Positions 5,348-61,900 of a stretch of 64,000 nt of DNA are shown here, piece by piece (position 1 is the first letter of the stretch; each line of letters starts with the position of its first letter). The translations under genes were made by a program, and so were the position numbers. This stretch comes from Candidatus Moraniibacteriota bacterium (GTDB taxonomy: Bacteria > Patescibacteriota > Minisyncoccia > Moranbacterales > UBA2206), in NCBI GenBank assembly GCA_049304095.1, contig JBAQNU010000022.1, forward strand, positions 2,348-66,347. The letters run 5' to 3'. The notes under the pieces are model-generated. The model made no database searches. It was given only the letters and a program-made list of their open reading frames with translations, and was not told the origin of the DNA.

Positions 5348-5379
5348 TTTGTTAATTAGTTAATTTTTTTAATAAGCAT

Positions 5380-5814: not shown

Positions 5815-5835
5815 TCTTTCAAACTCAGACAAATT

Positions 5836-5885
5836 AAAAAGAAGCCTAGGCGATGATTCGCTTTTGGCTTCTTTTGTTTTTGGTT
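5836..5885 (+). terminator. Probable terminator after rplL
   Basis: AAAAGAAGCC...GGCTTCTTTT, a 10-bp stem around a 19-nt loop, followed by GTTTTTGGTTTG. Confidence 0.5.
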
Positions 5886-5900
5886 TGTAAGAAAAGGATG

Positions 5901-33478: not shown

Positions 33479-35671
33479 ATGCCAACAAGAAAAACCATCT
33501 TTGAAATAACGGGCATGACTTGTGCCAGTTGCAGCGCTAGTAATGAAAGAGCACTGACTAAGACTATTGGGGTCAAAAAAGCTTCCATTAATTTTGCTAC
33601 GAAAAAAGCGCTGGTAGAATATGACGATGCCGTTTTAAATGAAGTGGAAATTAAAAAAACCATTCTAGCCAATGGCTATGGCATCAAGGGAGAGGTGAGT
33701 CGGAAATATCAACTGATAAACAAATATGCGCAATACAAGAATGAAATTTTTGGTAACATCAAGGTGCGTCTTGTGCTCTCAGCACTTTTTTCCTTACCGC
33801 TACTCTTGGGAATGTTTTTTCAAATCAAGGCCGGTGTGAATTTTTGGGGAATTGATTTGGTGATGTGGCTGCATATTGTCTTGGCTTCAATCATCGTGTT
33901 CGTTTTCGGTTGGCCATTCCACCGGATGGCCTACGCACAAATGAAAAAAGGCGAGTTAAGCATGGATACATTGGTTTCCATGGGAACACTCGTGGCCTAT
34001 TTTTTCAGTCTTTGGTCACTGGCCAATCACCAAAAAGATTATTTGGAAACTGGAGCTGTGATTATTACGCTAATTCTTTTGGGAAAATATTTGGAAGATT
34101 TGAGTGTGCAAAAAACGGGAGACGCGATGAGGAGTCTCATGGAATTGGGAGTAAAAAAAGCGCGCATCTTGGTGCGAGGAGAAGAGCGGGAAGTGGAGAT
34201 TGAGAAACTAAAAGTGGGCGATGTTATGCTGATTCGGCCAGGTGAGAAAATTCCACTGGATGGCTATATTATAGAAGGCGAATCAGCCATTGATGAGTCA
34301 ATGCTGACTGGAGAATCACTACTCACGGAAAAAAAGGTGGGTGATTATGTTTTTGGATCAATGCTTAATCAAAATGGCATTATCAAGGTGAGAGTAGAGA
34401 AAGTTGGTGAGGGCACGGTTTTGGCGCAAATTATTCGGACAGTTGAAGAGGCGCAAAATTCTAAAGCGCCGATTCAAAAATTAGCCGATCAAACTGCACG
34501 CATTTTTGTGCCGGTAGTATTATTTCTGGCAGCTATAACCTTTTTGGGCTGGTTTTTTTTGGCGCAGGGCGGAACGCGAGCGGTAATCTATGCTGTGTCT
34601 GTGCTCGTTATTGCTTGTCCTTGTGCGTTGGGCCTGGCCACGCCAACGGCGATTATGGCTGGAGCGGGCTATGGGGCGAAACGCGGAATTTTGTTTAAAA
34701 CTGGTGAAAGCTTTGAGCGGATTCGAAATATTTCCATGGTGATTTTTGATAAAACTGGAACGCTCACAAAAGGCAAGCCGGCCGTTTTGAAATTTTTCCT
34801 AAATCCGGGGGAAAAAATAACGGAAGCGGAGCTTTTGCAGTTGGCCTATAGTCTGACGATTAGCTCTGAGCATCCCTATTCCAAGTCAATTGTTAACTAT
34901 GTTAAATCACAAGGGTTAGAAAAGGAAATGCAGAAGATAGAAAAAATCAAAGAACATAAAGGCAAGGGAATTTCTGGCATGGACGAGAAAAATAGAAATG
35001 TATTTTTGGGCAATAAAAAAATTATCGAGCAAGAGAAGATAGAAAATGCCTGGGCAGAAAGTTTGGAGACGAAAGCGGAAAACAATGTCGGGGCACTATC
35101 TTTTATTGGTCGAGAAAAGACAATTCTTGGTGCGTTTTTGGTGGCAGATGAAATTCGGGATGAAGCAACTGAAGTGATTTCCAAGTTGAAAAGGATGAGA
35201 TTGAAAGTAGCGATGATTTCCGGAGACAGAGAAGTGGTTACCAGTTCAGTGGCAAAAACATTGGGAATTAGTTTAGTCATCTCTGATGTTTTGCCACATG
35301 AAAAATTAGAGGCGATTAAGAATTTCCAAGCGCAGGGAGAGAAAGTTATTTTCGTGGGAGATGGAATCAATGATGCGCCCAGCCTCATCGCTGCCGATCT
35401 GGGTATTGCGATGGGAAGCGCGATGGATATTGCCAAAGAAGCGGGGCAAATTGTAATGCTCGAAAATAATTTAAATAAAGTGTTAGAGGCAATTCACATT
35501 TCCCGCAAGACTTTTCGCACAATCAGGCAAAATCTCTTTTGGGCTTTTTTCTATAATATCGTAGCTATTCCTCTGGCAATGCTGGGTTTTCTCACTCCAG
35601 CCATTGCGGCAGGAGCGATGTCATTTAGCTCAATTTCAGTGGTGCTCAATAGTTTGCGCGCAGCAAAGTAG
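33479..35671 (+). CDS. copA: Copper-translocating P1B-type ATPase
   Basis: HMA domain [14 protein letters not shown] motif ([12 protein letters not shown]), [15 protein letters not shown]. Confidence 0.9.
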
Positions 35672-37851: not shown

Positions 37852-37862
37852 ATAGAAGTATT

Positions 37863-38510
37863 ATGCAATTTCATGTTGTTACAATTTTTCCGTCTATTTT
37901 AGACTCCTATCTAGGGGAATCGATTATTGGTCGTGCCCGAAAAAACGGGGTGATTGAGGTGCACGCGCACAATTTGCGCGACTATACGACTGACAAGCAT
38001 GGTAAAGTTGATGATACGCCCTATGGTGGTGGAGCGGGAATGGTGCTCCAAGTTCAGCCAATTCATGCTTGCGTTGAAAAAATAAAAGAGAAAATTATTG
38101 ATAAAAAGAAAACACGGATAATTCTTTTTTCCGCCAAAGGAAAGAAATATACGGAGAGAACAGCAGAAAGGCTTTCTAAATATGATAATTTAATTTTGAT
38201 TTGTGGTCGCTATGAAGGTGTGGATGAACGCGTGGTGCAGAATATTTGCGATGAAGAAATTTCCATCGGTGATTATGTGCTCACGGGTGGAGAATTGCCT
38301 GCGATGGTTCTCATTGATTCGGTAACACGGCTACTTCCTGAAGTTTTGGGAAATGTTGAGAGCGCAAAATATGAATCGCACAGTCGGAAAAACTATAAAG
38401 AACATCCGCAATATAGTAAGCCCGCTAGTTTCAATGGTTGGTCGGTGCCGGAAGTGCTTCTGGGTGGAAATCATAATGAGATAGCTAAATGGCGGGAAAA
38501 GATAAACTAG
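37863..38510 (+). CDS. trmD: tRNA (guanine37-N1)-methyltransferase
   Basis: MQFHVVTIFP, the GGGAGMVL SAM loop, and EGVDERV. The upstream in-frame ATG at 37797 lies inside the terminator and is rejected. Confidence 0.9.
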   Translation: MQFHVVTIFPSILDSYLGESIIGRARKNGVIEVHAHNLRDYTTDKHGKVDDTPYGGGAGMVLQVQPIHACVEKIKEKIIDKKKTRIILFSAKGKKYTERTAERLSKYDNLILICGRYEGVDERVVQNICDEEISIGDYVLTGGELPAMVLIDSVTRLLPEVLGNVESAKYESHSRKNYKEHPQYSKPASFNGWSVPEVLLGGNHNEIAKWREKIN

Positions 38511-38547
38511 GCAGAATAATTATAATAGAGTAGATAAATAATAATTT

Positions 38548-38694
38548 GCGACTCAGGCCTGCCCTAAAAGCAATCTCCCAAAGCGCGTGGCCTTCAAAGA
38601 TTTGTTTTTGTTTTTTTTAGATTGATGTTATTGATGTTCCTCTAAACTAATTTTGGCTAGGTGTGAGCTTACTTTTAGGGCAGGCCTAAGTCTC
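38548..38694 (+). repeat. 146-nt structured repeat element, copy 2
   Basis: Outer inverted repeat GCGACTCAGGCCTGCCCTAAAAG/CTTTTAGGGCAGGCCTAAGTCTC (21/23). Boxes A and B are identical to copy 1. Confidence 0.7.
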
Positions 38695-38719
38695 ATGATT
38701 TTTTTAAAAAAGTTTAATT

Positions 38720-39829
38720 TTGAAAATAATGCGCGCCCAAAAAGGTATTGATAAAAAATTATTATCCATCGTCGCTCTTTTAGTTGTGTTCGGTTTGGCG
38801 ATGATTGCTTCGGCCGGCATTGCCTATTCGCGCAGCCGTTTTGGCGATTCCTATTATTTTTTCAAACATCAATTAATCTACGGAATTTTGCCAGGCATCG
38901 TGGTTATGTATGTAGCTCAAAAAATTAACTATACTGTTTGGAAAAAATTTTCCTTGCCGCTGTTTATGCTGAGCATCTTTTGTCTCATTCTTGTTTTTGT
39001 TCCGGGCGTCGGTTCAAAAGTCTATGGGGCGAGTCGCTGGCTCCAGCTTGGTCCGTTTTCCTTTCAGCCATCGGAAATGCTAAAATTATCCATCATTTTT
39101 TATCTCGCAGCGTGGCTAGAGAGTCGCGCTGAGAGAGTCAAGGATTTCTATGAAGGCCTCCTGCCTTTTCTCACGATTGTGGCGGGCATTAGTTTTCTCT
39201 TGGAAAAGCAACCGGATATGGGAACGCTCGGAGTGATCATCTTTATTGCAATGACTATTTTTTTCATTTCTGGTGCAAAGCTGGCGCATATGCTACTTAT
39301 CGCTGCAACGGGATTTTCCGCGCTTGGACTGCTTATCAAATTTGAATCCTATCGGATGGATCGTTTTTTGGTTTTCATGCATCCTGAGCTTGATCCACGC
39401 GGAATCGGCTATCAAATCAATCAGGCGCTCCTCGCGATTGGTTCAGGCGGAATTTTCGGTGTGGGCCTGGGACATAGCATGCAAAAATTTAACTATCTGC
39501 CAGAACCGGTCGGCGACTCCATTTTTGCTATTATCGGAGAGGAGCTGGGGATGATTGGTTGCGTCGCTTTGGTGCTACTTTTTCTTTTTCTTGCCATGAC
39601 GGGCCTGAGAATTGCCAAAAACGCACCAGACAAGTTTTCCCAATTAGTGGCTGTGGGCATCACCGCCTGGATTACTTTTCAAGCGTTCATTAATATTTCC
39701 GCTATCTCCGGACTCATCCCGCTCACAGGAATTCCTTTACCATTCATCAGTTATGGCGGAACGTCAATCATTTTTCTTCTGGCTGGAATCGGCGTGATGC
39801 TTAATATTTCGAAATATAGTAAAATATAG
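38720..39829 (+). CDS. ftsW: SEDS-family peptidoglycan polymerase (FtsW/RodA)
   Basis: Ten TM segments and conserved GIPLPFISYGG near the C-terminus. Cell-wall gene context. Confidence 0.85.
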   Translation: MKIMRAQKGIDKKLLSIVALLVVFGLAMIASAGIAYSRSRFGDSYYFFKHQLIYGILPGIVVMYVAQKINYTVWKKFSLPLFMLSIFCLILVFVPGVGSKVYGASRWLQLGPFSFQPSEMLKLSIIFYLAAWLESRAERVKDFYEGLLPFLTIVAGISFLLEKQPDMGTLGVIIFIAMTIFFISGAKLAHMLLIAATGFSALGLLIKFESYRMDRFLVFMHPELDPRGIGYQINQALLAIGSGGIFGVGLGHSMQKFNYLPEPVGDSIFAIIGEELGMIGCVALVLLFLFLAMTGLRIAKNAPDKFSQLVAVGITAWITFQAFINISAISGLIPLTGIPLPFISYGGTSIIFLLAGIGVMLNISKYSKI

Positions 39830-39882
39830 ATAGGAAGAGATGATAAATTAAGAATAAAAATTAACCCAGCTAAAATAGCATT

Positions 39883-40647
39883 ATGAAAGAATCATTGAAT
39901 ATATCGCCAGAAGTCTTGGTCGATTCTAAATTTGAAAAAAAAGAAAAAAGAATCATTGGCATTCTGACTCTGACTCGTCATAGTAAAACGAACTATACTG
40001 AAAAATATCCAGACATAACAGAAGAGGGGCATCTAATCGCTCGGGAAAAATCTCAGAAAATAAAGGAGAGGAGCGAAAGCGATTCTTCTGGTGAGGATCG
40101 TTTCTATACGTCCTCTCCTAACGCGCGTGCCTTAGGAACGATGGATATTATTAAAGAAGCCATGGGCGATAAGGATAAGCCTACGCATCTCTCAGGTTCA
40201 ATTCGCTCGATGGATGTTTTCGATATGGCTGGTGCTGTGGAAATATTCCAAGAATTGCAAGGAGAAAGACGAGACCCGGAGCTAGTTGGGAAAAAATATC
40301 ATTCTGATGAACGTTTTGAATATAGGCCGGAAATTATAGAACCCAGGAGCAAGGTCAAAAAAAGGGCTATGCGAGCCTTGGAATACCTGATCCGTAAATT
40401 GGATTCATACGCCGGGCAAAAAACACCGCATGTTTTTGCTACTAGTCACTTTGAAGTCATTAATCCTATTGTTGCCGAGGTATTTGGCTTGGATGCTGGC
40501 GAGGATGATTTGTTTGGTCATGTCGAAGATGTAAGGATCGAATTTCTAGAGCCTGAGGATGATAATTTTATCTCAATCAGGATGTATTTCAGAGGGGAAA
40601 AAAGAGTAGCTAGTTTTGATAGAAAAACTAGGCGGATCATTTTATAA
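39883..40647 (+). CDS. Histidine-phosphatase-superfamily (PGAM-like) protein
   Basis: LTRHSKTNYTEKYPDITEEGHLIA fits RHG...N...L(T/S)..G...A branch-1 signature. Confidence 0.5.
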   Translation: MKESLNISPEVLVDSKFEKKEKRIIGILTLTRHSKTNYTEKYPDITEEGHLIAREKSQKIKERSESDSSGEDRFYTSSPNARALGTMDIIKEAMGDKDKPTHLSGSIRSMDVFDMAGAVEIFQELQGERRDPELVGKKYHSDERFEYRPEIIEPRSKVKKRAMRALEYLIRKLDSYAGQKTPHVFATSHFEVINPIVAEVFGLDAGEDDLFGHVEDVRIEFLEPEDDNFISIRMYFRGEKRVASFDRKTRRIIL

Positions 40648-40665
40648 CTTTTTCATAGAAACAAT

Positions 40666-41655
40666 ATGACAGATGTGTATTCTCAAGAAAAAATGCTAGC
40701 TGTTTTTAGCCAGAAATTTGAAATTGATGGAAAAAAATGTGTTGGGCATATTAAGACAGCTATTTCCAACGTCTTTGTTTTTCCTGATAAGGTTTATAAA
40801 ATATACAAAAATGACAATTCTTTCTTTAATGATAATTTTAATGATATTTCGCAAAAAAATAAACGCTTCGATTTTACCATAAAAGATTTTGACTGGAATC
40901 AGAGAATGACCCCAGAAATTTATTTCGCTATCAAGGGATGTGCGATGAGGGACGATCAAGTAGTATTTGTCAATAAGGAAGAAGCAACGGAGCTGGCGAT
41001 TGAAATGAAAAAAATAAATACAGACAGTGCGCTTTTATTGCAATTATTGGATAAAAATCTTTCTTTGACTGATTTTGAAACAATAGGCTTCCAGTTGCAT
41101 AAGCGCCTTGATGACTTACCTGAAGCATATACTCAGAAAAAACTAAAAGGTGTCATGCAACTCCGCATGGAAGATGTTAGCAATTGGGTCTTGGGTGTTC
41201 CTAAACACATCAGTCCAGAAGAGGCCAAAATATTCCTAGAAGCGCTTGATAGGAAAAAATCTGCTTATATGAATCAAGTGTCCGATGAAGAGATGGCAGG
41301 ATCTAGCATTGATGGTCACAGCGAAAATATGTTTTTTGATCAAGGGCGTTTGTATATCATGGATTCTTACGCGCCTAAAAAAGATTGGCTGTTGGCCGAT
41401 GGACATTTGAATTTTTATCGCCTAGCTACAGACATCTTGGCTCTTGGAAATCAGGAATCATTCGAGGCTTTCAAGGGAGGATATGAAAAGTATCGAGATC
41501 TAGGTGTCATGAACGAGAAACGAGAATCTTTTTGTATCTTTTATTCGTCAATGATTATGGTACCATATTTATATATGCTGGGAGAGCATGATGAGCGCAG
41601 AATGAAAGCCGCCAGAATTTATCATAATTTCGTCAGAAACCTACTTGGACAGTGA
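40666..41655 (+). CDS. Hypothetical protein, possible degenerate kinase-like (APH/choline-kinase) fold
   Basis: VGHIKTAISNVFVFPDKVYKIYKND resembles a P-loop/Lys region. DGHSENMFFDQGRLYIMDSY resembles the catalytic loop plus DFG-like segment, with the catalytic Asp position not clearly conserved. Confidence 0.3.
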   Translation: MTDVYSQEKMLAVFSQKFEIDGKKCVGHIKTAISNVFVFPDKVYKIYKNDNSFFNDNFNDISQKNKRFDFTIKDFDWNQRMTPEIYFAIKGCAMRDDQVVFVNKEEATELAIEMKKINTDSALLLQLLDKNLSLTDFETIGFQLHKRLDDLPEAYTQKKLKGVMQLRMEDVSNWVLGVPKHISPEEAKIFLEALDRKKSAYMNQVSDEEMAGSSIDGHSENMFFDQGRLYIMDSYAPKKDWLLADGHLNFYRLATDILALGNQESFEAFKGGYEKYRDLGVMNEKRESFCIFYSSMIMVPYLYMLGEHDERRMKAARIYHNFVRNLLGQ

Positions 41656-41730
41656 AAGATTGGGAATAGTATAATTTTTCAAAAAGTTTTATGAAAAAAC
41701 AATCAAAAAATTAATAAGTAATTAAAAAAT

Positions 41731-43545
41731 ATGGAAAAAATGCTACGACAGTTTTCAAAAGAAAAGTTTCCGGAAGAACGAAAAAAACTTGCTAGTGAAA
41801 TTTGGGAAATTAGAAAAAAAAGAAAACCCGCTCTTGATGAAGATAAGGAAAGAAAAGCAATTTCAGAAATAAGAAAAACTAAAATTGAAGAAGCGCACAC
41901 TGAGAGTATCAGTGAATTTTCAGCTAGAGTGGAAAAATTGCAGGAAGAGTTGGAAGAGCTAAATAGTTCCATCCTTGGAAGGGCAAGGAATTATTTTAAG
42001 ACAAAAAAAATTAAGAAGGATATATTATTTTCAAACAAGATGCTTGAGCTGAATCAACAAATGATGAGTGATGATCTTGCTCAGGTTGATGTTGGAATTG
42101 AAGGATCTGTCAGGGAAATAAAGAAATTTAATGATGATACCAGAAAGCATGAGCGACGAGATGAGTTGAGGAGGACTGGAGAAATGATTAGAAATTTTTA
42201 CAAGCAACAGGAAACTGAATGGGAGCAGGCCGGCTATTCCAAGCAAGAAATTGAAGAAAATTTCTCAGAAGAAAAATTGGTCTCTATGTCGATGGAAGAA
42301 TATGTTTTTTTGTTAAAGCGATTTCCCAGTCAAATGGTTACTCATGTGACAAGGCAAGGAGTTCGCGATCATTGGGGACATATGTTCCATAAGGCATATA
42401 TGAAAAAGTTCAGTAATGGTTTTGTCGATATTCTAAGAGATGGTCGATTGCGTTCACCCTTGGCTGTTCGATTCCTAGAACAAGAAAAGGACGCTGCTAT
42501 TGCTAAGTTATTAAAGCTAGATATGAAAAATAAAAAAGAAGCACTGGAGGACTTGAAATGGTATGTAGAATGTCCAGCCTTTGATAACGGTTTTGGTAAA
42601 AGCAAATACAGTGATACTTCAGCGATTCATGTGGCAGTTGAGGAGGTGGCAGATACTTTTTATGGAGCTGAAAGAGGAAATGAGATGTTCGTTGCTTATC
42701 CCGCTGCTTTTGTTGTTTCTAATTTCTATCATAGTAGTATGATTTCACTGGATGAGGCTGGGGGTGGTGGCATGGAGCATAATGATGCGTGGATTTGGGC
42801 GGAAGAGAAAGGGTTTGACATTAACGCTGGCGTTGTCTTTATTCCCAAGTCGGCCGAAGTTGATCCTGCCAGCGGGTCGCGATATAATATTGGTTCCAAT
42901 GGTGAGGTTGTTCTTCTGGAGGAAAATGTTAAATTATTGGAAAACCTAATAAAAAATCAAGAATTTGGAGAATTTATTGAAAATAAAGAGAACCTCGAAA
43001 AAGAGTTTGGCGTAAATTTAAGATTATCGGAGGCATTAAAGGAAACGATAAAACTAAAATTTGGCATTTCCAATACCGGAATAATTGATATTATTTTGGA
43101 TGAAATTTGCAGAGGCGCTGGCGGTAAACTACATTTTAGTCAAGAAATAACGCCAGAAAGAAAAGACGAGATTGACGATTTGCTTATGAAAAAAGAGCTT
43201 CTTTATAGTAAACCGCAAAAAACCATTTCGTCAGAAGAATATTGGAATAATTATTTTGAAAATAACCCAAAGATAAGACCGTCGAAGATTGTTTTTTATG
43301 AAGGAAATAGTCCAACGAAAGCTCTTAATGAGTGGAGGGCAAAAAATGGCATAATGCCAGCTGGAAGAGATGCGGACTCAATTCAACATAAAATAAGAAC
43401 AGAAAAGAAGCCACAGAATCTTTCTGATTTTTCGGAACGCAATGTTTCACAGCTATCCAAGCATGGCTTTGTCGGGGCGAATCGTTTTTATGATTTGGCG
43501 AAAGAATCAGTTGAAAGATATTATGCAAAAAATCAAAATCCATAA
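41731..43545 (+). CDS. Hypothetical protein (604 aa; N-terminal coiled coil)
   Basis: No recognisable motif. Confidence 0.5.
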   Translation: MEKMLRQFSKEKFPEERKKLASEIWEIRKKRKPALDEDKERKAISEIRKTKIEEAHTESISEFSARVEKLQEELEELNSSILGRARNYFKTKKIKKDILFSNKMLELNQQMMSDDLAQVDVGIEGSVREIKKFNDDTRKHERRDELRRTGEMIRNFYKQQETEWEQAGYSKQEIEENFSEEKLVSMSMEEYVFLLKRFPSQMVTHVTRQGVRDHWGHMFHKAYMKKFSNGFVDILRDGRLRSPLAVRFLEQEKDAAIAKLLKLDMKNKKEALEDLKWYVECPAFDNGFGKSKYSDTSAIHVAVEEVADTFYGAERGNEMFVAYPAAFVVSNFYHSSMISLDEAGGGGMEHNDAWIWAEEKGFDINAGVVFIPKSAEVDPASGSRYNIGSNGEVVLLEENVKLLENLIKNQEFGEFIENKENLEKEFGVNLRLSEALKETIKLKFGISNTGIIDIILDEICRGAGGKLHFSQEITPERKDEIDDLLMKKELLYSKPQKTISSEEYWNNYFENNPKIRPSKIVFYEGNSPTKALNEWRAKNGIMPAGRDADSIQHKIRTEKKPQNLSDFSERNVSQLSKHGFVGANRFYDLAKESVERYYAKNQNP

Positions 43546-43566
43546 TTTCATTCAATCAAAAATTCT

Positions 43567-44406
43567 ATGAAAAAACAAGCAAAAAATTTAGCGATTTTTG
43601 AGGGGAAGCAAATCCGGCGGATTTGGGATGCAAAAAAAGAATCGTGGTATTTTTCGATTATTGATATAATCGAAGTTCTGACTGGTTCGACAATACCGAA
43701 AAGATACTGGAGTGACTTAAAGGGTAAGTTGAAAAGAGAGGGGAGTGAAGTGTACGAAAAAATCGTACGGTTGAAAATGGAGGCAGAAGATGGGAAGCTG
43801 AGGGAAACTGACGCGGCTGACGTGGAAACGATTTTGCGTTTAGTCCAATCAGTTCCATCGCCAAAAGCGGAACCGATCAAGCTTTGGCTAGCGAAAGTTG
43901 GCTATGAGCGAGTGCAAGAAATCTCTGACCCGGAAAAAGCTTTGAATCGCAGTCGGGATTATTGGCAAAGGATGGGACGGAGCGAAAAATGGATTCAGCA
44001 AAGAATGATGGGGCAAGAAATTAGAAATAAACTGACGGATTATTGGAAAAATAATGAAGTCAAAGAACAAGACGAGTATGCGATTTTGACAAACATAATT
44101 CACCAGGAGTGGACTGATCTTTCAGTCAAAGAGCATAAGAGTTTGAAAAAACTCAAAACAGAAAATTTGCGTGATCATATGACGGACGCGGAGCTGGTTT
44201 TTACGGCTCTGGCAGAACTTTCTACCAGGCAGATTGCAGAGACGATGGAGACAAAAGGACTCGAAGAAAATAAAATACCAGCGAGGCGTGGCGGGCGAGT
44301 GGCCAAAAATGCTCGACTGGAGTTGGAGCAAAAAACCAGCAAAAAAGTGGTTAGCGGTAATAACTTTAAATTTTTATCAGGGCAGAAGAAATTGTTAGGA
44401 AAATAA
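43567..44406 (+). CDS. Bro-N domain protein, DinD-like (DNA-damage-inducible protein D family)
   Basis: The N-terminal Bro-N segment is IFEGKQIRRIWDAKKESWYFSIIDIIEVLTGS. The downstream segments ISDPEKALNRSRDYWQRMG and HMTDAELVFTALAELSTRQI parallel E. coli DinD (LSDDEAFRQLRLSERQRL, HMGSTELAANLFRITQTDE) as I recall it. Confidence 0.6.
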   Translation: MKKQAKNLAIFEGKQIRRIWDAKKESWYFSIIDIIEVLTGSTIPKRYWSDLKGKLKREGSEVYEKIVRLKMEAEDGKLRETDAADVETILRLVQSVPSPKAEPIKLWLAKVGYERVQEISDPEKALNRSRDYWQRMGRSEKWIQQRMMGQEIRNKLTDYWKNNEVKEQDEYAILTNIIHQEWTDLSVKEHKSLKKLKTENLRDHMTDAELVFTALAELSTRQIAETMETKGLEENKIPARRGGRVAKNARLELEQKTSKKVVSGNNFKFLSGQKKLLGK

Positions 44407-44428
44407 TTTAACTTTTTATACTAAATTT

Positions 44429-45532
44429 ATGCGCATAGTACTAACAGGAGGAGGATCGGGCGGGCATTTGACACCACTGGTGGCGGTGGCCAAAAAAATT
44501 CGGGAAAAAGTGCCGGAAGTGGAGTTTATGTTTATCGGGCCAGACGGAAAATTGGAGGCCGACATCATTGGTCGGGAAAACATTCCGATTAGAAATATTA
44601 TGACCGGAAAATTACGGCGCTATTTTTCTTTCAAAAATGTTGTGGATTTTTTTCGCATTCCGCTGGGAATTGCGAAGTCCTTATGGCTACTTTTGTTTTT
44701 TATGCCCGATGCCATTTTTTCCAAAGGCGGTTATGCTTCTTTCCCTGTGGTGATTGCCGGCTGGCTCTATCGCGTTCCGATTCTCACTCATGAATCAGAT
44801 TCCAATCCAGGACTAGCCAATTCGATGATTGGAAAATTTTCTAATCGAGTCGCAGTGACCTATCCGGAAGCGGAAAAATATTTTCCCGCGGCGCAAGTGG
44901 TGCTCACTGGCAATCCTTTGCGTGAGGATATTGCCAAGGGCGATGCATCCAAAGCAAGGAGATTATTTAATCTTACTGAATCGAAAAAGCTAATCCTTGT
45001 CTTGGGCGGTTCTCAAGGGGCGGCAAGCATTAATGATAAAATTCTCAACATTTTGCCCGAGTTGTTGCATAAATATCAAATCATTCATCAGGTCGGAGAG
45101 GCGAATTTCTCTGAAGTGAAACGCAGAGCGGGAGAGGCTGGCATCAAGGTTGGGCGGGAAGGCTATCATGCTGTGGCATTTTTGAAAGAAGAACTTTTGG
45201 ATGTGCTTTCCGCTGCAGATTTAGTTATTTCTCGCGCTGGGGCCACCTCCATTGCGGAAATCGCGGCTAACAAAAAGCCAGCCATCATAATTCCTCTGGA
45301 AACATCAGCCAGTGATCACCAGCGAATGAATGCCTATTCGTTGGCACGGATTGGCGGGTGTGTGGTGATGGAGGAAAACAATATGGGAGAGCATATGCTG
45401 ATGGAGAAAATCGATCAAATTATGAATGATGAACTTTTGCGAGACAAATTGGCGATAAATATTGGGACATTCTATCATCCGGAAGCGGCCGAAAAAATTG
45501 CCGATGGAATCTTAGGCATGATCAAGGAGTAA
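44429..45532 (+). CDS. murG: Undecaprenyldiphospho-muramoylpentapeptide beta-N-acetylglucosaminyltransferase
   Basis: MRIVLTGGGSGGHLTPLVAVA is the G-loop. Two-domain GT28 layout. Confidence 0.9.
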   Translation: MRIVLTGGGSGGHLTPLVAVAKKIREKVPEVEFMFIGPDGKLEADIIGRENIPIRNIMTGKLRRYFSFKNVVDFFRIPLGIAKSLWLLLFFMPDAIFSKGGYASFPVVIAGWLYRVPILTHESDSNPGLANSMIGKFSNRVAVTYPEAEKYFPAAQVVLTGNPLREDIAKGDASKARRLFNLTESKKLILVLGGSQGAASINDKILNILPELLHKYQIIHQVGEANFSEVKRRAGEAGIKVGREGYHAVAFLKEELLDVLSAADLVISRAGATSIAEIAANKKPAIIIPLETSASDHQRMNAYSLARIGGCVVMEENNMGEHMLMEKIDQIMNDELLRDKLAINIGTFYHPEAAEKIADGILGMIKE

Positions 45533-45542
45533 CTGGCTAATT

Positions 45543-46949
45543 TTGAAAAATATGGCTATTGACTTGGAAAAGATTAAAAAAGTTTATGTGGTTGGCATTA
45601 AAGGCTCTGGCGTGGTCGGAGTGGTGGAAATGCTAAAAGCTAGAGGTATCGAGGTGATGGGATCTGACACGGCGGAAAAATTTTTCACTGAAACAATTCT
45701 CAAAAAAAATCAGATCCAGTATTTTGAAAATTTTGCGGTGGAAAATATTCCATCGGAGATTGATTTAGTCATCTATTCTACGGCGTATAATGAAAATAAT
45801 AATGTGGAAATGCAGGAAGTTAAAAAAAGAGAACTGCCAATGATCAGTTATCCAGAAATACTCGCTGAACTTTTTAATGTTAAATATGGCATTGCGATTT
45901 GTGGGACGCATGGAAAAACAACCACCTCGGCATGGCTGGCTAATACCTTGAAAGAGTTGGGCGCCGATCCCGAAGCGGCAATTGGTAGTCGGGTGACGAA
46001 TTGGGAGGGGAGCGCACTTACAGGTGCGGGCGAAATCTTTGTGTTGGAAGCCGATGAATATCAAAATAAATTAGCGCGGTATAATCCGCACGGTGTAATT
46101 CTCACTAGCTGTGACTATGATCACCCAGATTTTTTCCCGGATTTTGAGGCATATAAACAAACTTTCAAAGATTTTGTAGCAAGAATTCCTAAAACCGGTT
46201 TTTTAGTCGTTTGTGGTGATGCCACCGCTACGTTAGAAGTCGCCGAGGAGGCGACTTGCGCGATTTTGACGTATGGTTTCTCAGGAGATTGTGATTATAA
46301 AATTTCCAATTTAGAACTTGAGAGAGAAAATGCGAAACCTGCACAGATATTTGAAGTAATGCAAGGAGAAAATAGTTTAGGGAGATTTGAAATCAGTCTT
46401 TATGGAAAGCATAATGTGCTCAACGCCACAGCGGTGATTGTAGCTTGTCACAAGCTCAATTTTAGCACAGAAAAAATTCAAGTTGCGCTCAAAACTTTTC
46501 AAGGAACAGCCAGGAGGTTTGAGCTTATTGGCGAGCGAAATGGCGCAATCCTCATCGATGATTATGGCCATCATCCGGATGAAATCAGGGCGACGCTAAA
46601 ATCCGCGCGCGATCTGTATCCGGATAAAAATATTTGGGCGATTTTTCAGCCACACACTTTCACGCGCACCAAGACCTTGCTTTCCGAATTTTCTCAAAGT
46701 TTTTCTGACGCGGACAAAGTGATTCTTCTGGATATCTATGGCAGTGCTCGCGAAGCGCAAGGTGGCGTGCATTCAAAAGATTTGGTCGATTTGATTAATA
46801 AATATGACCGAGGTAAGGCCGAGCACATTGCGACCATTGACGAAGTGGTGGAATTTTTGAAAGACAAAATCGGTCCAGATGATGTTGTGATTGCCATTGG
46901 CGCGGGAAATGGCTGGGAGGTGGTGTCCAAATTATTCAAAAATGAGTAG
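45543..46949 (+). CDS. murC: UDP-N-acetylmuramate--L-alanine ligase
   Basis: GIKGSGVVGVVEML, GTHGKTTTSAWLAN P-loop, and Mur ligase middle and C-terminal domains. Confidence 0.9.
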   Translation: MKNMAIDLEKIKKVYVVGIKGSGVVGVVEMLKARGIEVMGSDTAEKFFTETILKKNQIQYFENFAVENIPSEIDLVIYSTAYNENNNVEMQEVKKRELPMISYPEILAELFNVKYGIAICGTHGKTTTSAWLANTLKELGADPEAAIGSRVTNWEGSALTGAGEIFVLEADEYQNKLARYNPHGVILTSCDYDHPDFFPDFEAYKQTFKDFVARIPKTGFLVVCGDATATLEVAEEATCAILTYGFSGDCDYKISNLELERENAKPAQIFEVMQGENSLGRFEISLYGKHNVLNATAVIVACHKLNFSTEKIQVALKTFQGTARRFELIGERNGAILIDDYGHHPDEIRATLKSARDLYPDKNIWAIFQPHTFTRTKTLLSEFSQSFSDADKVILLDIYGSAREAQGGVHSKDLVDLINKYDRGKAEHIATIDEVVEFLKDKIGPDDVVIAIGAGNGWEVVSKLFKNE

Positions 46950-47022
46950 TGTGGGTGAGGGCAAATCAGCTTGAATCCGGATGGATTTTGCGTTATACTA
47001 GAAGTATAAAGAATTATGAATT

Positions 47023-52932: not shown

Positions 52933-55900
52933 ATGGGTTTCATAGTTGAAATCATTCAGAATATTTCAGCATTTGTCGGACAGAAAGTCTCGACCATATC
53001 GACCGCTATCTCGGGGATAGGGGAGTTTTTTGGTGGGGATTTTTTCACTGATTTGTTGGCTTTTTTTGCCGTGCCATTTGTTCTAGCAAAAAGTTTTGTT
53101 TTGACAGTCTTTTCAGTCATACAAAAAACAACAGTTGATGCATTCAATAGTTTGGGTAATTTTTGGGAAATAATTAAAAATAGTCTAGTTGATTTTGGAG
53201 CCAGTATAAGCCTAGTTTTCCAACTGATTAAGAACAATGTTGCGGATCTTTTTGCCGGCCTTGTGGTTTCGCTGGCGAATAGTATCACAGCGGGAGAGCT
53301 TTTTGTCGAGGCGTTGGCAAAAAATATTAGTGATTTTGGCGCTTTGGTTTTTTCGGTTGTAAAAGACAGTTTAACTGGTTTTCCTTATGCCGTTTCGGCA
53401 ACAGTTATTGCGGGCCTGCTATTGGCAGTGGTGCTTTTAATGTTGACAGAGAAAATACTGGTTGTATTTGATGCGTTAGATTTGATGGTAATCAAAAAAA
53501 ATGTCAAACAATTTTTTGGAAAAACAATAATCAAACAAAGAGCAGAAAAGCAAGCTACTCCAATTGTCATGCCCAATGTGCAACCAATTTCTTTTGCCCA
53601 AGCATTTGTCGTTGTATCATTTTTAGCTTTTTTGGCATATAGTTTACCCCAAAAATATCAATTGGCCTCGCTTTCGCCATGGCTACAGCGTAGCGAGGGA
53701 ATCAACTCTGATGCTGGCGAAACAAGCCAAGACGGTGGTTACCAGGGTAATATGAATCTTACCCCTACAGAAATTCTTGGCGAAACCACCCAAGAAACCC
53801 TCTCCCTCCTAGCAGAATCTAACCCTAATCTTTATCAGCTGCTCAACGCTGGTGTACAAAGACGTAGCAATGCTACGTCTCTACAGCTAGGCATGATTAC
53901 CATCAATCCTCAGGGTCAAATTTTTCTATTACCAAAATCGATTAGTTCTCGTGAAATCAAAAATTATGTAATCAAAAATATTGATATCGCCGATCATGCT
54001 ATCACTTCCCGAACAATCAAAAACCACACCATCAGGTCAATTGATCTCAAAAGAGAGCTCACCATCGAGGAACTGAAAATTGATCACAATCTCACCGTGC
54101 GTGGCAATCTCATTACCGAAGGAACATTGATTGCTGTAGACATGAATCTCTCGGGTAACCTAGATCTGCAAGATAATCTAATGCTTAACATTGGCAATCA
54201 AAACACAGACTTCACCGCTAGTGGCGGACTAAATCTGGCTGGCAATCTCAACATCAACAACAATTTTCTAGCTAATGCCACTACTGGTAACATCACCGCT
54301 GGAACATACAATGGCAACACTATCACCAATGGTACCGGCACACTAACATTAAACGAGCATACTCTCACCCTCACCAACAACACTCAACTCAATCAAAATC
54401 TCCTCACCACTTCCACTCCGCAGTTTGCCAGATTGGGACTGGGAGTTCCAGCCGACGCCACTAACATTCTCACCGCCACTTCATCCTCCACCACTGATCT
54501 TTCGAAAACTCTAAATATTTCTCACACTGGAATCATCACTGGCACGGGTTATGCCGGATATTTTTCTAAAACCGGAGCGTCAACCACTAATGTGGGACTC
54601 TATACGATCGCCACCGGAGCAACCAATAACTATGCGTTACAGGTTGATTCGGCCGTAGTAGGAGCAACTAATTATACAATCTATGCCAATGGTGTGGCAA
54701 AAAATTATTTCGCGGGCAATATCGGCATAGGGGACGCTGCGCCTGGTACAAATCTCTCCGTCATTGGTAATGCGCAAATTGGATATGCATCCGGTACAAC
54801 CGTTTCGGCTGGCACGTCACTAGCAATCTCGAGCAACGTCGGCATCGGGACGACGGGGCCTGGGGCGAAGTTGGAAGTCTATGGAGGAATGGCATATTTT
54901 ACCGGTTTAGATTCAGTTAATGCCAATGGCAACGGCCTTGGTATTTTTGGTGGGAATGACACGGGTGGTATTTATATGAGAGGAGATAATAGTGGAACCA
55001 ATAATTTGTCGTTGGGAACTAATATCGGTGATATTTCATTTAAAACTGGCAGTGGAGCTGGGACGGATAGGATGATAATTCAAAACGGAGGCAACGTCGG
55101 CATCGGGACGACGAGTCCATTGGCAAACCTGCACATTCTTGGTGGAGCATCAAGCAACGCCAGTATGCGAATGGAGTCTGGTTCAGGAAGGTATGCTGGT
55201 TTCCAGATGTACGATGGGAATATTGGAAATAGCTGGGCCGTTGGACATGAGTTTGCGGCGACAAGTAATGCGTCACTGGTCTTTAGTTACGGAAATGTTG
55301 GCAGTGAATCTGTTGTAGCCAAAGTCTCAAGTACAGGCGGATTTACCCAGATAGGTAGCGGTGTTAATTCATTCGTAGGCAACGTCGGCATCGGGACGAC
55401 GGGGCCGGGGTATAAGCTGGATGTTGTTGGTACTTCAGGAAATGCTTCAGTTCTTCGAGTTTCAGGAGACCTTTATCCTGAGATTGCTTTGAAATATACA
55501 AATAATGCGGTCGACAATCTTTCAGCTCTCAGGTTCTACGACGAAGCAAATAATTGGAAGTGGATGATTGCTAATTATTCTGATGCTTATTCAACAGCGT
55601 CAATGCAAAATTTATTTGCTATTTATCAAAGAACTAATTCTGGCGATACGAATGTTAATGCATACAGGCTGGTTATTGACAATACCGGCAACGTCGGCAT
55701 CGGGACGACGAGTCCGGGGGCGAAGTTGGATATTAATGACAATTCAGGTGGAGCGGAAATTCCTTTTAAATTGCGTGTTTCTGACAATGCTAATGATTAT
55801 TGGCAAATTTCTAATGCTACAGGTGGTGCTGGATTATTTATTCCCACATTTAAAACTAAAGTAGATACAGCGAGTTATACAGGAGGACTAGGCGGTGATG

Positions 55901-58900
55901 GCACTGGGACTTCTGGCTCTACATTTGTTGCGGCAGTAAATGACGTTGCTTATTCAAGCGGTTATTATGCGGGGGCGGCTATGGCATTTGAAGCCAGAAA
56001 TTATGCGGAAACAGGAGCGTTGTCTAATAGAAACTTATTTAGTTGGACTAACTGGTATGCCAACAGTCCCTTAATGGTTATAAATCCGAGCGGTAATATT
56101 GGAATGGGATATTCGAATCCAGGAACAGCGAAACTAGCAATAAACGGCAACGTCGGCATCGGGACGACGAGTCCGGGGGGTAAAGTGGTTATTGCTGGTG
56201 GGGAGAGTAACACTGCATTATTGGGTGCAGTTGCTGGTAATACTTCTAACGCTTTAATCAATCTTGCCAGAAGTTCTGATGGTATAGTATTTCATGGATT
56301 AAGATTAGACGCTTCTGATAATTTGCATTTTGATTATCGTAAATCATCTGACGGAAGTCCACAAACAGCAATGACCATTGATAGAATAAGCGGCAACGTC
56401 GGCATCGGGACGACGGGACCAGGAGCAAAATTTCAAATCTACACCGGAGACGGAACAAGTGGTCTGCGCACCAGTCTCATCTGTTCTAACTCTACCACCA
56501 GCAAACTCTACACTGATGCCAATGGAAATATGATTTGTGGCACTGATCAAACTGGTAGTGGCACCGGAAATCTTGTTGATACTCTCTCTGCCACCTTAGG
56601 AGCAGGCAATGACGCTGGGGGACTGGGGATGATTAATCTGGGGAATGTGGGGATTGGGACGACGAGTCCCATCGCTAAACTCCATAGTGTTGTTGCTGAT
56701 GGTGTTTCCTTTGCAATAGGGCTTTCGGGCACCACAAAAGGACTTCGCGTAGAAGCAGATTCAACCTCAATGATTATCCGCGGAGTTGATACTACTCTTA
56801 CGGGTTCTTACCAACCACTTCGTTTTGGTGGATCTGATCTTCGTTTTGAAACAAATGGGACAACTGAAGCAATGCGGATTCTTTCAAATGGCAACGTCGG
56901 CATCGGGACGACATCGCCAAATACCGCACTTCATGTTCACTCTGCAAACGGAGTGGTGGATTCCTTTGGCAATCTGATGGTCTCCACTAATGATGCAGTG
57001 GCTATAAATAAAGGTGGATACCTTACTTTTGGAGGAAGCTGGGACGCAGGAGGCGGTTCGTCAACATTCGGTGGAATTGGCGGACGGAAAGAAAATGTTA
57101 CTTCCGGTGACGCCACAGGATATTTGATGTTCTCGACTTCAAATTCTGGTTCAACTTTGACTGAGAAAATGCGGATTACATCCAGTGGCAACGTCGGCAT
57201 CGGGACGACGGGGCCAGGGGCGAAGCTGGAAGTGGCAGGTGCTGGTTCTGCTAACACAATAAAACTTAAAGACACAACCAACCCTTACACTACACTTTTT
57301 ATGGGGGCACAGCAGTTCGTTACTAATCGAAGTCCAATAGATGGCGTTTTTGAAGATGTGAATAAAGCAGCCGCCAGTGTAATCTTAATTTCGGGAGTTG
57401 GAAATTCAGCCGTAACATTTAATACTCATACATCAAATAACACGAATCCATTGGAAAGGATGCGAATCAATGGCGACGGCAACGTCGGCATCGGGACACC
57501 GTCACCGTTGGCAAAACTTCATGTAGTAGGTAATTATGATAATGATGGTACTGGAGGTATTCTGCTTGATGCACTTTCTGGTTCTCCAGATATATATAGT
57601 TTAAGAATAAATCCTTTTGTTGTAGGTAGTCAAAAAGTTGGTTATCAATTCCAAACAAAAAGTGTATCTGGTGGGACAAATGTTCCATTGACATTTGATA
57701 ATAGTGGCAACGTCGGCATCGGGACGACGAGTCCGGGAGAAAAACTTTCTATCTTGACTGGTGCCTTAGAACTCAAAAGTAGTGCCTTTAATACATCAAA
57801 CAATAGAATCTATTTTACGAGACATCAAGTGGGTAGTACTTATGGCGGAATTGATTGGCGAGATAGTGCGGGTACGGTTCTATATCAAGTAGCGAGTGGT
57901 GTTTTGGTTGGTAATGGCATTGAATTTAACGAAGGAGACGGTGTTAATAATAGGATGTATATTCAACCCGGCGGCAACGTCGGCATCGGGACGACGGGAC
58001 CGAGTTCGAGGTTACATGTCCAGAGCGTTTCAGGGAGCACTGAAAATACACGTTTTGCAAATAATGATTTTGTTATTGGGTCTGTAGGTACAGAACTGAA
58101 AGTAAGTTTTGGAGCTGCAAGTGGTAACACGTATGCAATTTTGAATGCTTTGAATAGTGGTGAAACGGCATGGACTAATCTGGCCCTACAAACAGGCGGA
58201 GGCAACGTCGGCATCGGGACGACGGGGCCAGGGACAAAACTGCATATTTATGGTACCACGGCTGCTACCGTACAAACTATAGAAGGTGTTGGGGGCGGAG
58301 TGAGTGCTGGTCTTGTTATTAAAGCTGACACAACTGGGCAAGCTGGAATTCAACTTTATGAGAATAGTACGCAAAAATGGAACATATATAAAACCGCTGA
58401 TGCGAATGGCGATTTGCGCTTCTATTCGCTTGGAGCACTAGCTGATGTGTTGACGATAAAAGAAGCAAGTGGCAACGTCGGCATCGGCACGACGGGGCCA
58501 CTCAATCTTCTTCACCTGAAAAAAGGAACAAACTTAAATCTAATTTTAGGTAATCAAAATGTTCAAAGTGGAGCAACGGCCATGTCAATTGTGGCAATTG
58601 ATGATGGCTACACCACAAACATTCCATTGGAATTTCACGCTTCAAAGTTTTATTTCCATAGCGGCAACGTCGGCATCGGGACGACGACGCCGAATATCGG
58701 GCTGGAAGTCGTGAAAGATAATGGAAATGGTTGGACGGCTTTGTTTAGGAGCGCTGCCAGCAGTGAAGGCGTCTTTTTGGGAACAAGGTATACTCATGCA
58801 ACCGTTCAAGGCATCTCTGGTGATTTAGGTTCGCTCACAGATTTATTGATAAATCCACTCGGCGGCAACGTCGGCATCGGGACGGCGGGGCCGACATCTA

Positions 58901-61900
58901 AATTGCATATATATGGAGCTGATGACCCGACAAACGGCCAGCTGCGCATAGAAAGTTCTGGCGCTGACGCTCGTATCGAGTTGGATAATAGCAGCGCTAA
59001 TAGATATTCATTGAATTTCTCCGCTTCTGCAGGATATGAAGGTCTGCGGTTTATGTATAACAATTCCGATAAAGTGATCTTTGATGAAAACGGCAACCTC
59101 GGCATCGGGACGACGAGTCCGGGCTCTGCGTTGGATGTCAATGGTTCAATAAACATTCCTTCGACTGGTGATTACAAGATGAATAATATTGTTCGCATAG
59201 CTGGTGGAGGAACTTTTTATTCTGCTGTTGGTACGGCAGCAGCGCCGAGCTATGCTTTCGGTGCTGATGTGGATACTGGTTTATTTCTGACCGCATCCGG
59301 GTCTAACGCGATTGGATTTTCGACAGGTGGGACAGAGGCAATGAGAATAACTTCGGGCAACGTCGGCATAGGCACCACCACACCAGGAGCCACCTTGGAC
59401 GTAAATGGAAGAATATTTGGAGCAAACGGAACTGCTGCTTTACCAAGTATTTCATCACGTGGAGAAAACAATGCTGGATTATTCTTTGGCGATGACGGAG
59501 TTGGTTCGTATCTTGGTTTTTCTGCTGCAGGATCAGAAGGAATACGTCTTAATCGTTTTGGCAACGTCGGCATTGGTACGACGGCGCCAGGATCGTTATT
59601 CACAGTAGCGGGAACAATAAGATCAGACACAAGTGGAACCCCCGAAGTGTATCTAAATAAATCGGGGACTCGTGGATGGTCTATCCGTAACGATGGAGCG
59701 TTTAATATATATAATTGGGAAACTGCCACAAATCAATTGACGGTTTTGAATAGCGGCAACGTCGGCATCGGGACGACGACACCACAAACGAAACTCGATG
59801 TGGCAGGGACAATTCGCGCTACTGCTTATTCTACTCCTACTTCTGGTACGGGGGTTGAAATTTTATACGGAGCACAGGCTGCGAATACGGGAAATATAAT
59901 TGCATATGATAGAACTGCATCTGCATATAAACCGCTTACTCTTGATGGTTCAACGATATTGTTAAATGCGTACAACACAAGCGGCAACGTCGGCATCGGG
60001 ACGACGAGTCCGGGGGCGAAGTTAGATGTTCGTTCTGGTACTAACGCAACATTAAATTATCCGACAGGAGATTGGGCAGCAAAGGTTTTCATGCAAACAG
60101 ACGCTTCGACTTCAGGCGGATTAGTAGTTGGTAACAGATGGCAAGATAATACTTCAACAATATTTGAAGCAGGAAGTCTTTATGGAAGTGGTAGCGCATG
60201 GGCGTCTATGTTTGTGATCAAAGGTCAAGGCAACGTCGGCATCGGGACGACGAGTCCGGGGGCAACTCTTGATGTCAATGGGACTTCTATTATTCGAAAT
60301 AATACAATATGGAAGGCTGGAGCAGGAAACAATACTAATCTAATTAGTTATTCTGGTACAGATGATGGAATATTCCGCCAATATTCTGGTGGTATAATAA
60401 AAAATCAACTATTTGCTGCTGGGGACAGTTATTTCAATAGCGGCAACGTCGGCATCGGGATAGCGGGACCACAGGAGAAATTGACTGTTGCAGGTAATCA
60501 ATTATTTGCATTAGCTCCTGATGTTGGTTCCTATGGAAAATTGGAAGCAGCCTATGGAGGAAATATTGCAACTTATGGCGTAGCAGCAAATATTGATTTT
60601 TATAGACCCGTTGCAGGTAGCGGGAATGAGGGGGAAATAAGATTTAGTACTAACCCTGGAGGTGGTGGCGTTGGTAGTTTGACCCAACGAATGGTAATAG
60701 ATAAGAGCGGCAACGTCGGCATCGGGACGACGGGACCAACCAATCTTGTTGAAATTCAGGGCAATACTACAGGTACTGGTGGGACAGGTTCAGTTTTATA
60801 TGTAAAACAAAATGCTAGTTGGACAGCGAATGAGCCTTACTCACTAAATGTTTCAGGTTATTCAAACTTAAATGGATTCAGAATATCTGGACCGGGTGTG
60901 AGGAGTTTGTATAGTGGGGCTTCTGGTTCTCAGATTGAGTTTGCGACTCACTTTGGTTTTATTTCATTCGCTGGTGGTAGCCAAGGAACCGATCGGTATA
61001 TGACAATTCAAAACGGCGGCAATGTCGGCATCGGGACGACAGCTCCTGGTTACAAATTACAAGTCTACACCGGCACCGCCAATGGCTATGTTAATTCCGA
61101 TGGAACTTGGGGTTCCAGTTCTGATCTAAATTTGAAAAAAAACATCTCTTCTGTTTCTTCTGTCCTAAACAATGTATTAGCTCTTAATCCAGTTTTATAT
61201 AATTTCAAAACAGAAAGAAACGGAACAACTCCCCATATCGGTTTTGTTGCCCAAGAAGTGGAAAAACTCTTTCCCGAACTAGTCTCCACCGGACCAGATG
61301 GTATAAAGGGAATCAGCTATGCTATGTTTACCCCACTTCTCACTAAAGCGATTCAACAGCAACAAACTCAAATCACAGGCATTGCGGACAATCAAAACAA
61401 AATCGTCGAGCAACTGACCAATCAACTTTCCTATCAACTTGCGGACAAAACAATTTCCATCGATACTAAAATAAACCTGATTGGGGCGAGTCTGGACGAG
61501 TTAAACCAGGAACAATATGATCAACAAATCAAAAGAATAAAGGGGCAAATAGAGGATAATACCGGCAATTTAACGCTTTTGGATGCCAGATTGAAACTGT
61601 TGGAAACAGTGCTCACACTGGATAGTAATAACCTGAAAGTCATCGGTGATATTTCTGCCAACAACCTGACGCTCAGCGGAAAACTAGATGTGGACAGTGC
61701 GGTCGCCGGCGCCTTTGCTGTGAAAGTTAGCGCGGATAAACCTAAAACAATCGGTGAGGCATATATTTGCCCCGCAGGCTTCGCGGGAGATGCTTGTGAT
61801 ACGTCAGACGCTTCCAGCGATGGAAAATCAATCCTGGTGCAAACTTCAGCCGTCTCAGCCAGCGCCAAAATTTTTGTCACCCCCGAAAATGATACAAATG

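Follow-up and report, generated by a model that had tools for sequence, protein, structure and literature searches.

How did four genes come to lie between ftsW and murG in the cell-wall gene cluster of a bacterium whose relatives mostly keep these two genes side by side, and do the four work together? The question is raised by an uncultured member of Candidatus Moraniibacteriota (Candidate Phyla Radiation, CPR, or Patescibacteria), represented here by a 64,000-nucleotide stretch of DNA that we call the window. Positions 39883-44406 of the window (~4.5 kb) hold four open reading frames (ORFs), g1 to g4, all on the plus strand and filling the ftsW-murG interval in the ORF listing; murC and murB lie downstream of murG. 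The original prediction, made from the sequence alone, had placed this four-gene block exactly, had regarded it as an accessory insertion, and had suspected that it encodes a single small-molecule signalling or anti-phage module. We agree with the first part and depart from the last: the block is probably a strain-level mosaic accessory island, put together in at least two steps from three functionally independent units that are all oriented with the cell-wall cluster. These units are g1 and g2, a metabolic-looking kinase-phosphatase operon; g3; and g4.

The proteins of the window were mapped onto 80 related loci, in ~70 of which both ftsW and murG are visible. In ~65 of these ~70 the two genes are separated by 0-284 bp, and the expectation that murG normally follows ftsW is thus borne out for this lineage. 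The loci with an interrupted junction are all close relatives, and each carries a different cargo. The gap measures 4977 bp in L005, which holds an M20 peptidase and two PEP-utilizers proteins; 7454 bp in L007, where a PPDK_N/PEP-utilizers protein, a His_Phos_1 phosphatase, an aminoglycoside phosphotransferase (APH) kinase, a PDC-S13 gene, an unknown gene and a PEP-utilizers protein follow one another; and 3093 bp in L018, which has a lone 992-aa ORF (3182-6160) with no Pfam or PADLOC match. Other genes occupy the 7-10 kb 5' of murG in L006 and L032: L006 has, amongst others, a PPDK_N protein of 1494 aa that bears three PEP-utilizers domains, and in L032 the junction is rearranged. The ftsW of the window is 79-86% identical to that of the closest relatives (L005-L014 and L072) and its MurG 74-81% identical to that of the closest Candidatus Moraniibacteriota metagenome-assembled genomes.

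Synteny across the 80 related loci also confirms that the insertion is lineage-restricted and that the same four genes do not occur throughout the lineage. Indeed, g1, g2 and g3 were absent from all 80 (tblastn, E<1e-5), and g4 was present only in L007, at the same junction and 82% identical, and in L057, elsewhere in the locus. Because most relatives have no insertion and the cargo differs among the exceptions, ftsW-murG is a lineage-specific variable insertion site, an insertion-tolerant junction found in one subclade of Candidatus Moraniibacteriota. Interrupted mur clusters are in fact usual in this lineage, since most relatives carry a ~910-aa P-type ATPase between murC and murB, which is missing from the window. 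The window's own murC-murB spacing is 74 nt (46950-47022), and the relatives' ATPase is only distantly related to the one encoded at 33479-35671 of the window. Between ftsW and murG, L005, L006 and L007 share arrays of paralogous ~480-514 aa proteins, each with a C-terminal PEP-utilizers mobile (phosphohistidine swivel) domain and accompanied in these relatives by PPDK_N-containing proteins, an unusual expansion. A kinship of g3 with these island proteins was considered and ruled out, BLASTP similarity being nil.

What, then, can be said about how the block was assembled? The original prediction had reported neither an integrase nor repeats at its borders. This holds for the outer borders, where we found no integrase, transposase, tRNA, att or terminal repeats within 38500-45600 (the sole tRNA of the window lies at 14423), but not for the interior, where a 31-nt direct repeat, 28/31 identical between its copies, brackets g3. 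A repeat of this kind had 0 matches in 100 dinucleotide-preserving shuffles. Comparison with a sister strain (L085), known from an ENA contig (ERZ27247824, contig k141_456369) that ends inside g4, is particularly informative here. This contig is ~91% identical at the nucleotide level to window positions 37860-41712 and carries trmD-ftsW-g1-g2, directly followed by an intact Bro-N gene (start MKKQQKNLAIFEG) and with no g3. The corresponding ATG of the window, at 41691, opens only the peptide MKKQSKN before a stop at 41712-41714. Both breakpoints fall at 41712, where homology with the sister strain ends and homology with the g3 of another locus, L089, begins. The latter is about 94-95% identical to the window's g3 (94% at the nucleotide level), and has an unrelated 440-aa gene on its 5' side and a g4-type gene on its 3' side.

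From the break in homology at 41712, and from the 31-nt copy of the g4 start on the other side of g3, we infer that g3 was a recent gain, brought in by recombination together with a new g4 allele. Put most simply, an island that already held g1-g2-g4 would have received a g3+g4 segment. An ancestor would have had g1-g2-g4 between ftsW and murG, the arrangement that the sister strain retains. Recombination with another Patescibacteria genome would then have introduced g3+g4, the left joint falling 22 nt into the resident g4 and leaving a 7-codon stub, and the right crossover lying in or beyond g4, so that the g4 allele was replaced. Synonymous divergence (dS) between the window and the sister strain is likewise a mosaic, at 0.52 for ftsW, 0.32 for g1, 0.12 for g2 and 1.25 for the 5' part of g4. 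The protein that precedes g3 in L089 (129-1451) has no PADLOC match and may belong to the donor context of the segment. A predicted sigma-70-like promoter precedes both the g4 remnant and g3, in a segment common to the sister strain, and could drive their expression.

The composition of the block deviates only mildly from that of its surroundings, and only in two of the genes. A shift in GC was seen for g2 (GC 0.365, GC at third codon positions, or GC3, 0.352) and g3 (0.368 and 0.311), the lowest values in the window, where the GC3 of other genes is 0.37-0.55; it was not seen for g1 and g4, whose GC is normal, and the synonymous codon usage of the block is unremarkable. All four genes are under purifying selection, with ratios of nonsynonymous to synonymous divergence of 0.14 (g1, against the sister strain), 0.18 (g2), 0.12 (g3, against L089) and 0.09 (g4).

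We now turn to the units themselves. The original prediction had named g1 histidine-phosphatase-like and g2 possibly kinase-like, and both names are upheld. Residues 28-229 of g1 match His_Phos_1 (E 9e-8, 32.5 bits against a gathering threshold of 21.7). Its subfamily (5 members) shares the invariants R32-H33, S78-P79-x-x-R82, H189-x-E191 and a C-terminal F245-D246, and its N-terminal motif is R-H-S/E/G, not a strict R-H-G. A phosphatase encoded 5' of a g2 homologue in L086 is 33% identical (E 2e-31) and a predicted orthologue of g1, and the phosphatase that stands before a canonical Pfam-APH kinase in L007 belongs to the same subfamily, F-D tail included.

For g2, no Pfam match was obtained at E<0.1, and none in NCBIfam. 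Its AlphaFold2 (AF2) model is confident (pLDDT 89.2, pTM 0.88) and returned 92 Foldseek matches in the PDB at E<1e-3, the best at E 1.7e-6. The top 50 are all APH-type kinases at probability 1.0, with moderate TM-scores of 0.39-0.54; amongst these 50 are aminoglycoside, macrolide and spectinomycin phosphotransferases, homoserine kinase II, amicoumacin kinase, N-acetylhexosamine kinase, choline kinase and YihE. Eight family sequences share K45, D216-x-H218-x-x-N221 and D233, which by motif position, not by superposition, we assign as the ATP-binding lysine, the catalytic loop and the metal-binding aspartate. Considering that sequence-level membership of the Pfam APH family is lacking, g2 would be a divergent kinase of the APH fold and not a member of PF01636, i.e. 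a predicted small-molecule kinase of divergent APH/choline-kinase fold. The possibility that it is an orthologue of the APH in L007 was ruled out by BLASTP and by hhalign (probability 0.2%). A word-indexed search found 7 relatives only and a profile search at least 75 clusters, all from CPR bacteria, several of which are labelled 'aminoglycoside phosphotransferase family enzyme' by JGI.

Set beside known kinases of the PF01636 clan, such as APH(2'')-IVa, homoserine kinase II, the amicoumacin kinase AmiN and NahK, g2 appears to share the bilobal fold, a length of ~330 aa, the beta-3 lysine, the D-x-H-x-x-N catalytic loop and the downstream metal-binding aspartate. It differs from them in having no sequence match to PF01636 or to the APH of L007, and in forming a distinct CPR-only family that is almost always paired with a phosphatase. 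In the window g1 and g2 are 18 nt apart, and a phosphatase gene lies directly 5' of the g2 homologue in 7 of 8 independent contexts, at distances from overlapping to ~80 nt. This phosphatase is of the His_Phos_1 family in the window and its sister strain, L086, L092 and L175, and of the unrelated IMPase family (Inositol_P) in L091, L093 and L174; it is missing only in L087/L088. The surroundings of the pair are mostly housekeeping genes (NusA, trigger factor, NifU, GMP synthase), and neither mur nor defence genes.

From this recurrent gene order we predict that g1 and g2 form a conserved two-gene operon, and we infer that their products act on one common small molecule. The ATP-dependent g2 would add a phosphate ester and g1 would remove a phosphate from the same molecule, the outcome perhaps being to move a phosphate between positions, in salvage or activation. 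Or could the pair run a cycle of phosphorylation and dephosphorylation that masks and unmasks a metabolite? Kinase/phosphatase pairs mask and unmask metabolites or antibiotics in this way, as in the phosphorylation of streptomycin to streptomycin-6-phosphate or that of amicoumacin. The genetic coupling of an APH-fold kinase to a phosphatase is common to those pairs and to g1+g2; the latter differ in having no biosynthetic cluster around them and a phosphatase of the His_Phos_1 or IMPase type. In terms of comparative genomics, a CPR kinase that Pfam does not recognise and that almost always has a phosphatase beside it, drawn from one or the other of two unrelated families, is a clean sign of a common substrate, and offers a tractable two-enzyme target in the search for a missing salvage or modification pathway in organisms of minimal metabolism.

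Could that pathway be the salvage of cell-wall precursors, with g2 as an anomeric amino-sugar kinase of the NahK/AmgK type, which would explain its position beside murG? The pair does lie inside the mur cluster, g2 matches an N-acetylhexosamine 1-kinase (4ocj) with one of its highest TM-scores (TMq 0.53), and CPR bacteria lean heavily on salvage. However, in 7 other independent genomes the pair (or g2 alone, in L087/L088) lies away from mur and fts genes, NahK cannot be told by Foldseek score from kinases of aminoglycosides, choline, homoserine or macrolides, and ~65 relatives manage without any gene at the ftsW-murG junction. We regard this explanation as improbable.

The second unit, g3, lacks a recognisable domain, just as had been noted from the sequence: it matches nothing in Pfam, NCBIfam or PADLOC. 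An N-terminal coiled coil (~1-166) is followed by a conserved enzyme-like core (~190-395) and a conserved C-terminal domain (~490-600), and the AF2 model (pLDDT 81, pTM 0.73) depicts a ~165-residue helical coiled coil, an alpha/beta core and the C-terminal domain. Searching with a profile of the non-coiled-coil part yields a family of at least 506 representative clusters at E<1e-3, of which 405 reach E<1e-30; with few exceptions they have 500-640 aa and the same architecture, and the named sources (Sungbacteria, Pacebacteria, Magasanikbacteria) are all CPR. Across 178 members, H300, Y311, G312, E314, N317, N351, V377, G382 and S383 are invariant (178/178), E318 and Y385 are kept in 177 and H205 in 175, and H205, R208, G210, R212, D213 and D295 are conserved in >96%.

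None of our searches tied this core to a protein of known function. A Pfam scan of 38 family members gave coiled-coil noise and nothing consistent, PDB profile searches with full-length and core-only profiles returned chance matches only (such as haemoglobin and CENP-N), Foldseek against the PDB and BFVD found coiled-coil matches only (E>=0.14), and fusion partners were uninformative on function. Three candidate readings, 2H-phosphoesterase, ADP-ribosyltransferase (H-Y-E) and GIY-YIG, agree poorly with the spacing and order of H-x-T...H...Y-G-x-E-x-x-N-E, no tool supports them, and we claim none. A 3030-aa family member (P0171) raised the thought that g3 might be akin to the 3029-aa ORF of the window; the two have no similarity, and that ORF carries a Peptidase_S74 domain. 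To judge by the types of its invariant residues (His, Arg, Asp, Glu, Asn, Ser and Tyr), the core of g3 is most likely the site of a hydrolysis or transfer reaction whose substrate is phosphorylated or resembles a nucleotide. The protein would be cytoplasmic, and its long coiled coil probably serves to oligomerise or tether it. Proteins of ~600 aa in hundreds of CPR lineages, whose invariant core looks like an active site and for which we could detect no relative that has a known structure or function, are in our opinion a large part of the value of this locus.

Does g3 have a partner? We sampled 84 other g3 loci, 80 of them metagenomic (L094-L173) and four others (L001-L004). No g1 or g2 was found near g3 in any of the 84, even with hidden Markov models (HMMs), a g4 homologue follows g3 in one (L114), and in the remaining 83 not even HMMs detect a DinD-like gene nearby. 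When the neighbours in the 80 metagenomic loci are clustered, each family is found in 4 loci at most, and on three long contigs g3 lies beside a NUDIX gene, between RNase J and TrpRS, and after AlaRS, respectively. Given this absence of a conserved partner, g3 would work on its own.

We must nonetheless weigh the idea that g3 and g4 make up a two-gene conflict cassette, of defence or toxin type, which moves as a unit and has g1 and g2 as bystanders. A PDC-S13 gene directly follows g3 in the window, in L089 and in L114, where g3 is ~42% and g4 48% identical to those of the window; the segment that entered the window came as g3+g4; and the GC3 of g3 is the lowest in the window. Yet 83 of 84 other g3 loci are free of DinD-like neighbours, g3 usually sits among housekeeping genes such as RNase J/TrpRS and AlaRS, g4 homologues occur without g3 in L007, L057 and the sister strain, and g3 is absent from IMG/VR. 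Such a cassette therefore seems unlikely, and we prefer to treat g3 and g4 as separate units. Somewhat more generous, and still to be called doubtful, is a broader proposal: that g3 is a new enzyme class, possibly with a new fold, found CPR-wide, which in a few genomes forms a mobile conflict cassette of two genes with a DinD-family partner, and that, separately, g1 and g2 would represent a CPR kinase-phosphatase pathway not yet described, where phosphatases of two unrelated families can stand in for one another.

The third unit, g4, had been described as a DinD-like Bro-N protein, a description that stands. It matches Bro-N (PF02498) above the gathering threshold (E 5.6e-6, 27.3 against 25.6 bits) and the PADLOC model PDC-S13 PDLC04920 over its full length (E 2.9e-118, residues 4-272 of 279). 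DinD of E. coli K-12 is itself a PDC-S13 member, matching model PDLC04919 at E 2e-121, and reaches the model of g4 at E 2e-16. Since it does so only through DinD residues 122-250, g4 would be of the DinD family by its C-terminal domain and Bro-N by its N-terminal one. The two proteins belong to the same PADLOC candidate family, have C-terminal domains that appear homologous at profile level and are similar in size (~275 aa); they differ in that direct BLASTP between them is insignificant (E 0.83), in the Bro-N N-terminal domain of g4 and in the lack of a LexA-type box upstream of it. Indeed, no LexA box was found upstream of g3 or g4 with E. coli- and Gram-positive-type consensus sequences, which may not be those of CPR bacteria, and LexA-box-like motifs occur window-wide at chance level. 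E. coli DinD is LexA-regulated (PMC6590174, Table 1), and PMC4457935, citing Uranga et al. 2011, lists it among regulators of the RecA filament. By analogy, g4, with its DNA-binding-type N-terminal domain, may act on RecA or on DNA transactions; alternatively, it could be a single-gene phage-defence candidate. PADLOC PDC systems are candidates for defence, as yet untested (bioRxiv 10.1101/2024.01.29.577857), and a literature search for the name 'PDC-S13' gave no result.

Is the block, then, what remains of an integrated prophage, integrative conjugative element or transposon? Phages commonly carry Bro-N domains, the match of g4 to phrog_15286 reaches E 2e-90, and the GC of g2 and g3 is lowered. 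Against this, integrase, transposase, tRNA and terminal repeats are all missing, no relative of g3 was found on IMG/VR contigs, only 4 weak matches to g4 turned up among 50,697 phage records, and the pieces of the block have separate histories. Those few phage records also lend little support to g4 as a phage gene, and the SOS and phage association ascribed to it was not seen at this locus. A mobile-element remnant is very improbable here, and recombination of separate pieces into a tolerant junction accounts better for what we observe.

We can now return to the idea of one four-gene system, in which the kinase and phosphatase would make and remove a signal, g3 would be the effector and g4 the sensor. 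The four genes are co-oriented with gaps of 18-75 nt, g4 belongs to a defence-candidate family, an AbiEi/AbiEii pair lies 2 kb away in the sister strain, and L007 has a phosphatase, a kinase and a PDC-S13 gene in the same order. However, all four occur together only in this window; g3 is missing from the sister strain and L007; the other g3 loci just described lack g1 and g2 throughout, and all but one lack g4; g2 pairs are at home among NusA, trigger factor, NifU and GMP synthase genes; g1, g2 and g3 match no PADLOC family at E<1, so that the PADLOC check was positive for g4 only; and dS is a mosaic across the block. As its parts are distributed independently, with g1+g2 recurring without g3 or g4, g3 recurring alone and g1-g2-g4 without g3 in the sister strain, the single module is largely refuted, and we give it next to no credence.

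Several observations do weigh against the independent-unit island that we favour. The phosphatase, kinase and PDC-S13 genes of L007 stand in the order of the sister strain, which leaves some probability to a g1-g2-g4 functional trio. The order g3-g4 has been seen three times, and a functional link between the two may exist in a minority of genomes. The right-hand crossover is not seen, as the sister contig ends inside g4. Furthermore, g2 reaches no Pfam kinase model, is unrelated to the APH of L007 by hhalign and has TM-scores of only 0.39-0.54, and the common substrate of g1 and g2 is deduced from gene order only.

How does such an island compare with known ones? As in genomic and defence-island hot spots, a fixed site between syntenic core genes holds a variable cargo that is co-oriented with its flanks and includes a defence-candidate gene, and a bona fide AbiE system is found nearby in the sister strain. 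It differs from them in its position inside the dcw/mur cluster of a CPR bacterium, in having no integrase or att, and in that part of its cargo (g1+g2) looks metabolic and not defensive. The island itself is ordinary, given that core-gene junctions are well known to gather variable accessory genes and that interruptions of the mur cluster are routine here; its value lies in two uncharacterised families, the g1+g2 kinase pairing and g3. The locus also provides a dated, base-pair-resolved case of gene gain by putative recombination between uncultured Patescibacteria.

Table 1. Features of the ftsW-murG interval of the window and of its two anchors; roles of the promoter match, repeats and g1 to g4 are predictions.
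Feature	Coordinates	Strand	Basis or size
ftsW, left anchor	38720-39829	+	PF01098 FTSW_RODA_SPOVE E 2e-106
g1, histidine-phosphatase superfamily branch 1, first gene of predicted g1-g2 operon	39883-40647	+	254 aa; PF00300
g2, predicted divergent APH/choline-kinase-fold kinase, second gene of predicted g1-g2 operon	40666-41655	+	329 aa; fold + motif
Sigma-70-like promoter match TGGACA-18-TATAAT, 11/12	41646-41675	+	consensus scan
Repeat copy 1, putative g4-start remnant and recombination joint	41682-41712	+	28/31 identical to 43558-43588
g3, CPR-specific protein, no Pfam, NCBIfam or PADLOC match	41731-43545	+	604 aa
Repeat copy 2, ribosome-binding region and first 7 codons of functional g4	43558-43588	+	31-nt repeat
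g4, Bro-N + DinD-type C-terminal domain, PADLOC PDC-S13	43567-44406	+	279 aa
murG, right anchor	44429-45532	+	PF03033 and PF04101

A second strain-variable site lies 2 kb from the block. Between a KH-domain gene and trmD, the sister strain carries the AbiEi/AbiEii pair (4137-5445 of its contig; PADLOC E 1.5e-55 and 1.5e-74), and the window has 15 nt only at this position (37781->37797).

Immediately upstream of ftsW, the trmD-ftsW spacer (38511-38719) contains a long imperfect inverted repeat with arms at 38547-38580 and 38662-38695. It folds at -60.5 kcal/mol (z = -4.4 against shuffles), has no Rfam match and may be a structured leader or the remains of an element; the sister strain has a spacer of similar length. 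Further away in the window, residues 2730-2784 of the 3029-aa ORF at 52933-62022 form a Peptidase_S74 (endosialidase intramolecular chaperone) domain, and the product is probably a surface protein of fibre-like form. At 4700-4820, a leader of ribosomal protein L10 (RF00557) scores 45.3 bits against a gathering threshold of 44.

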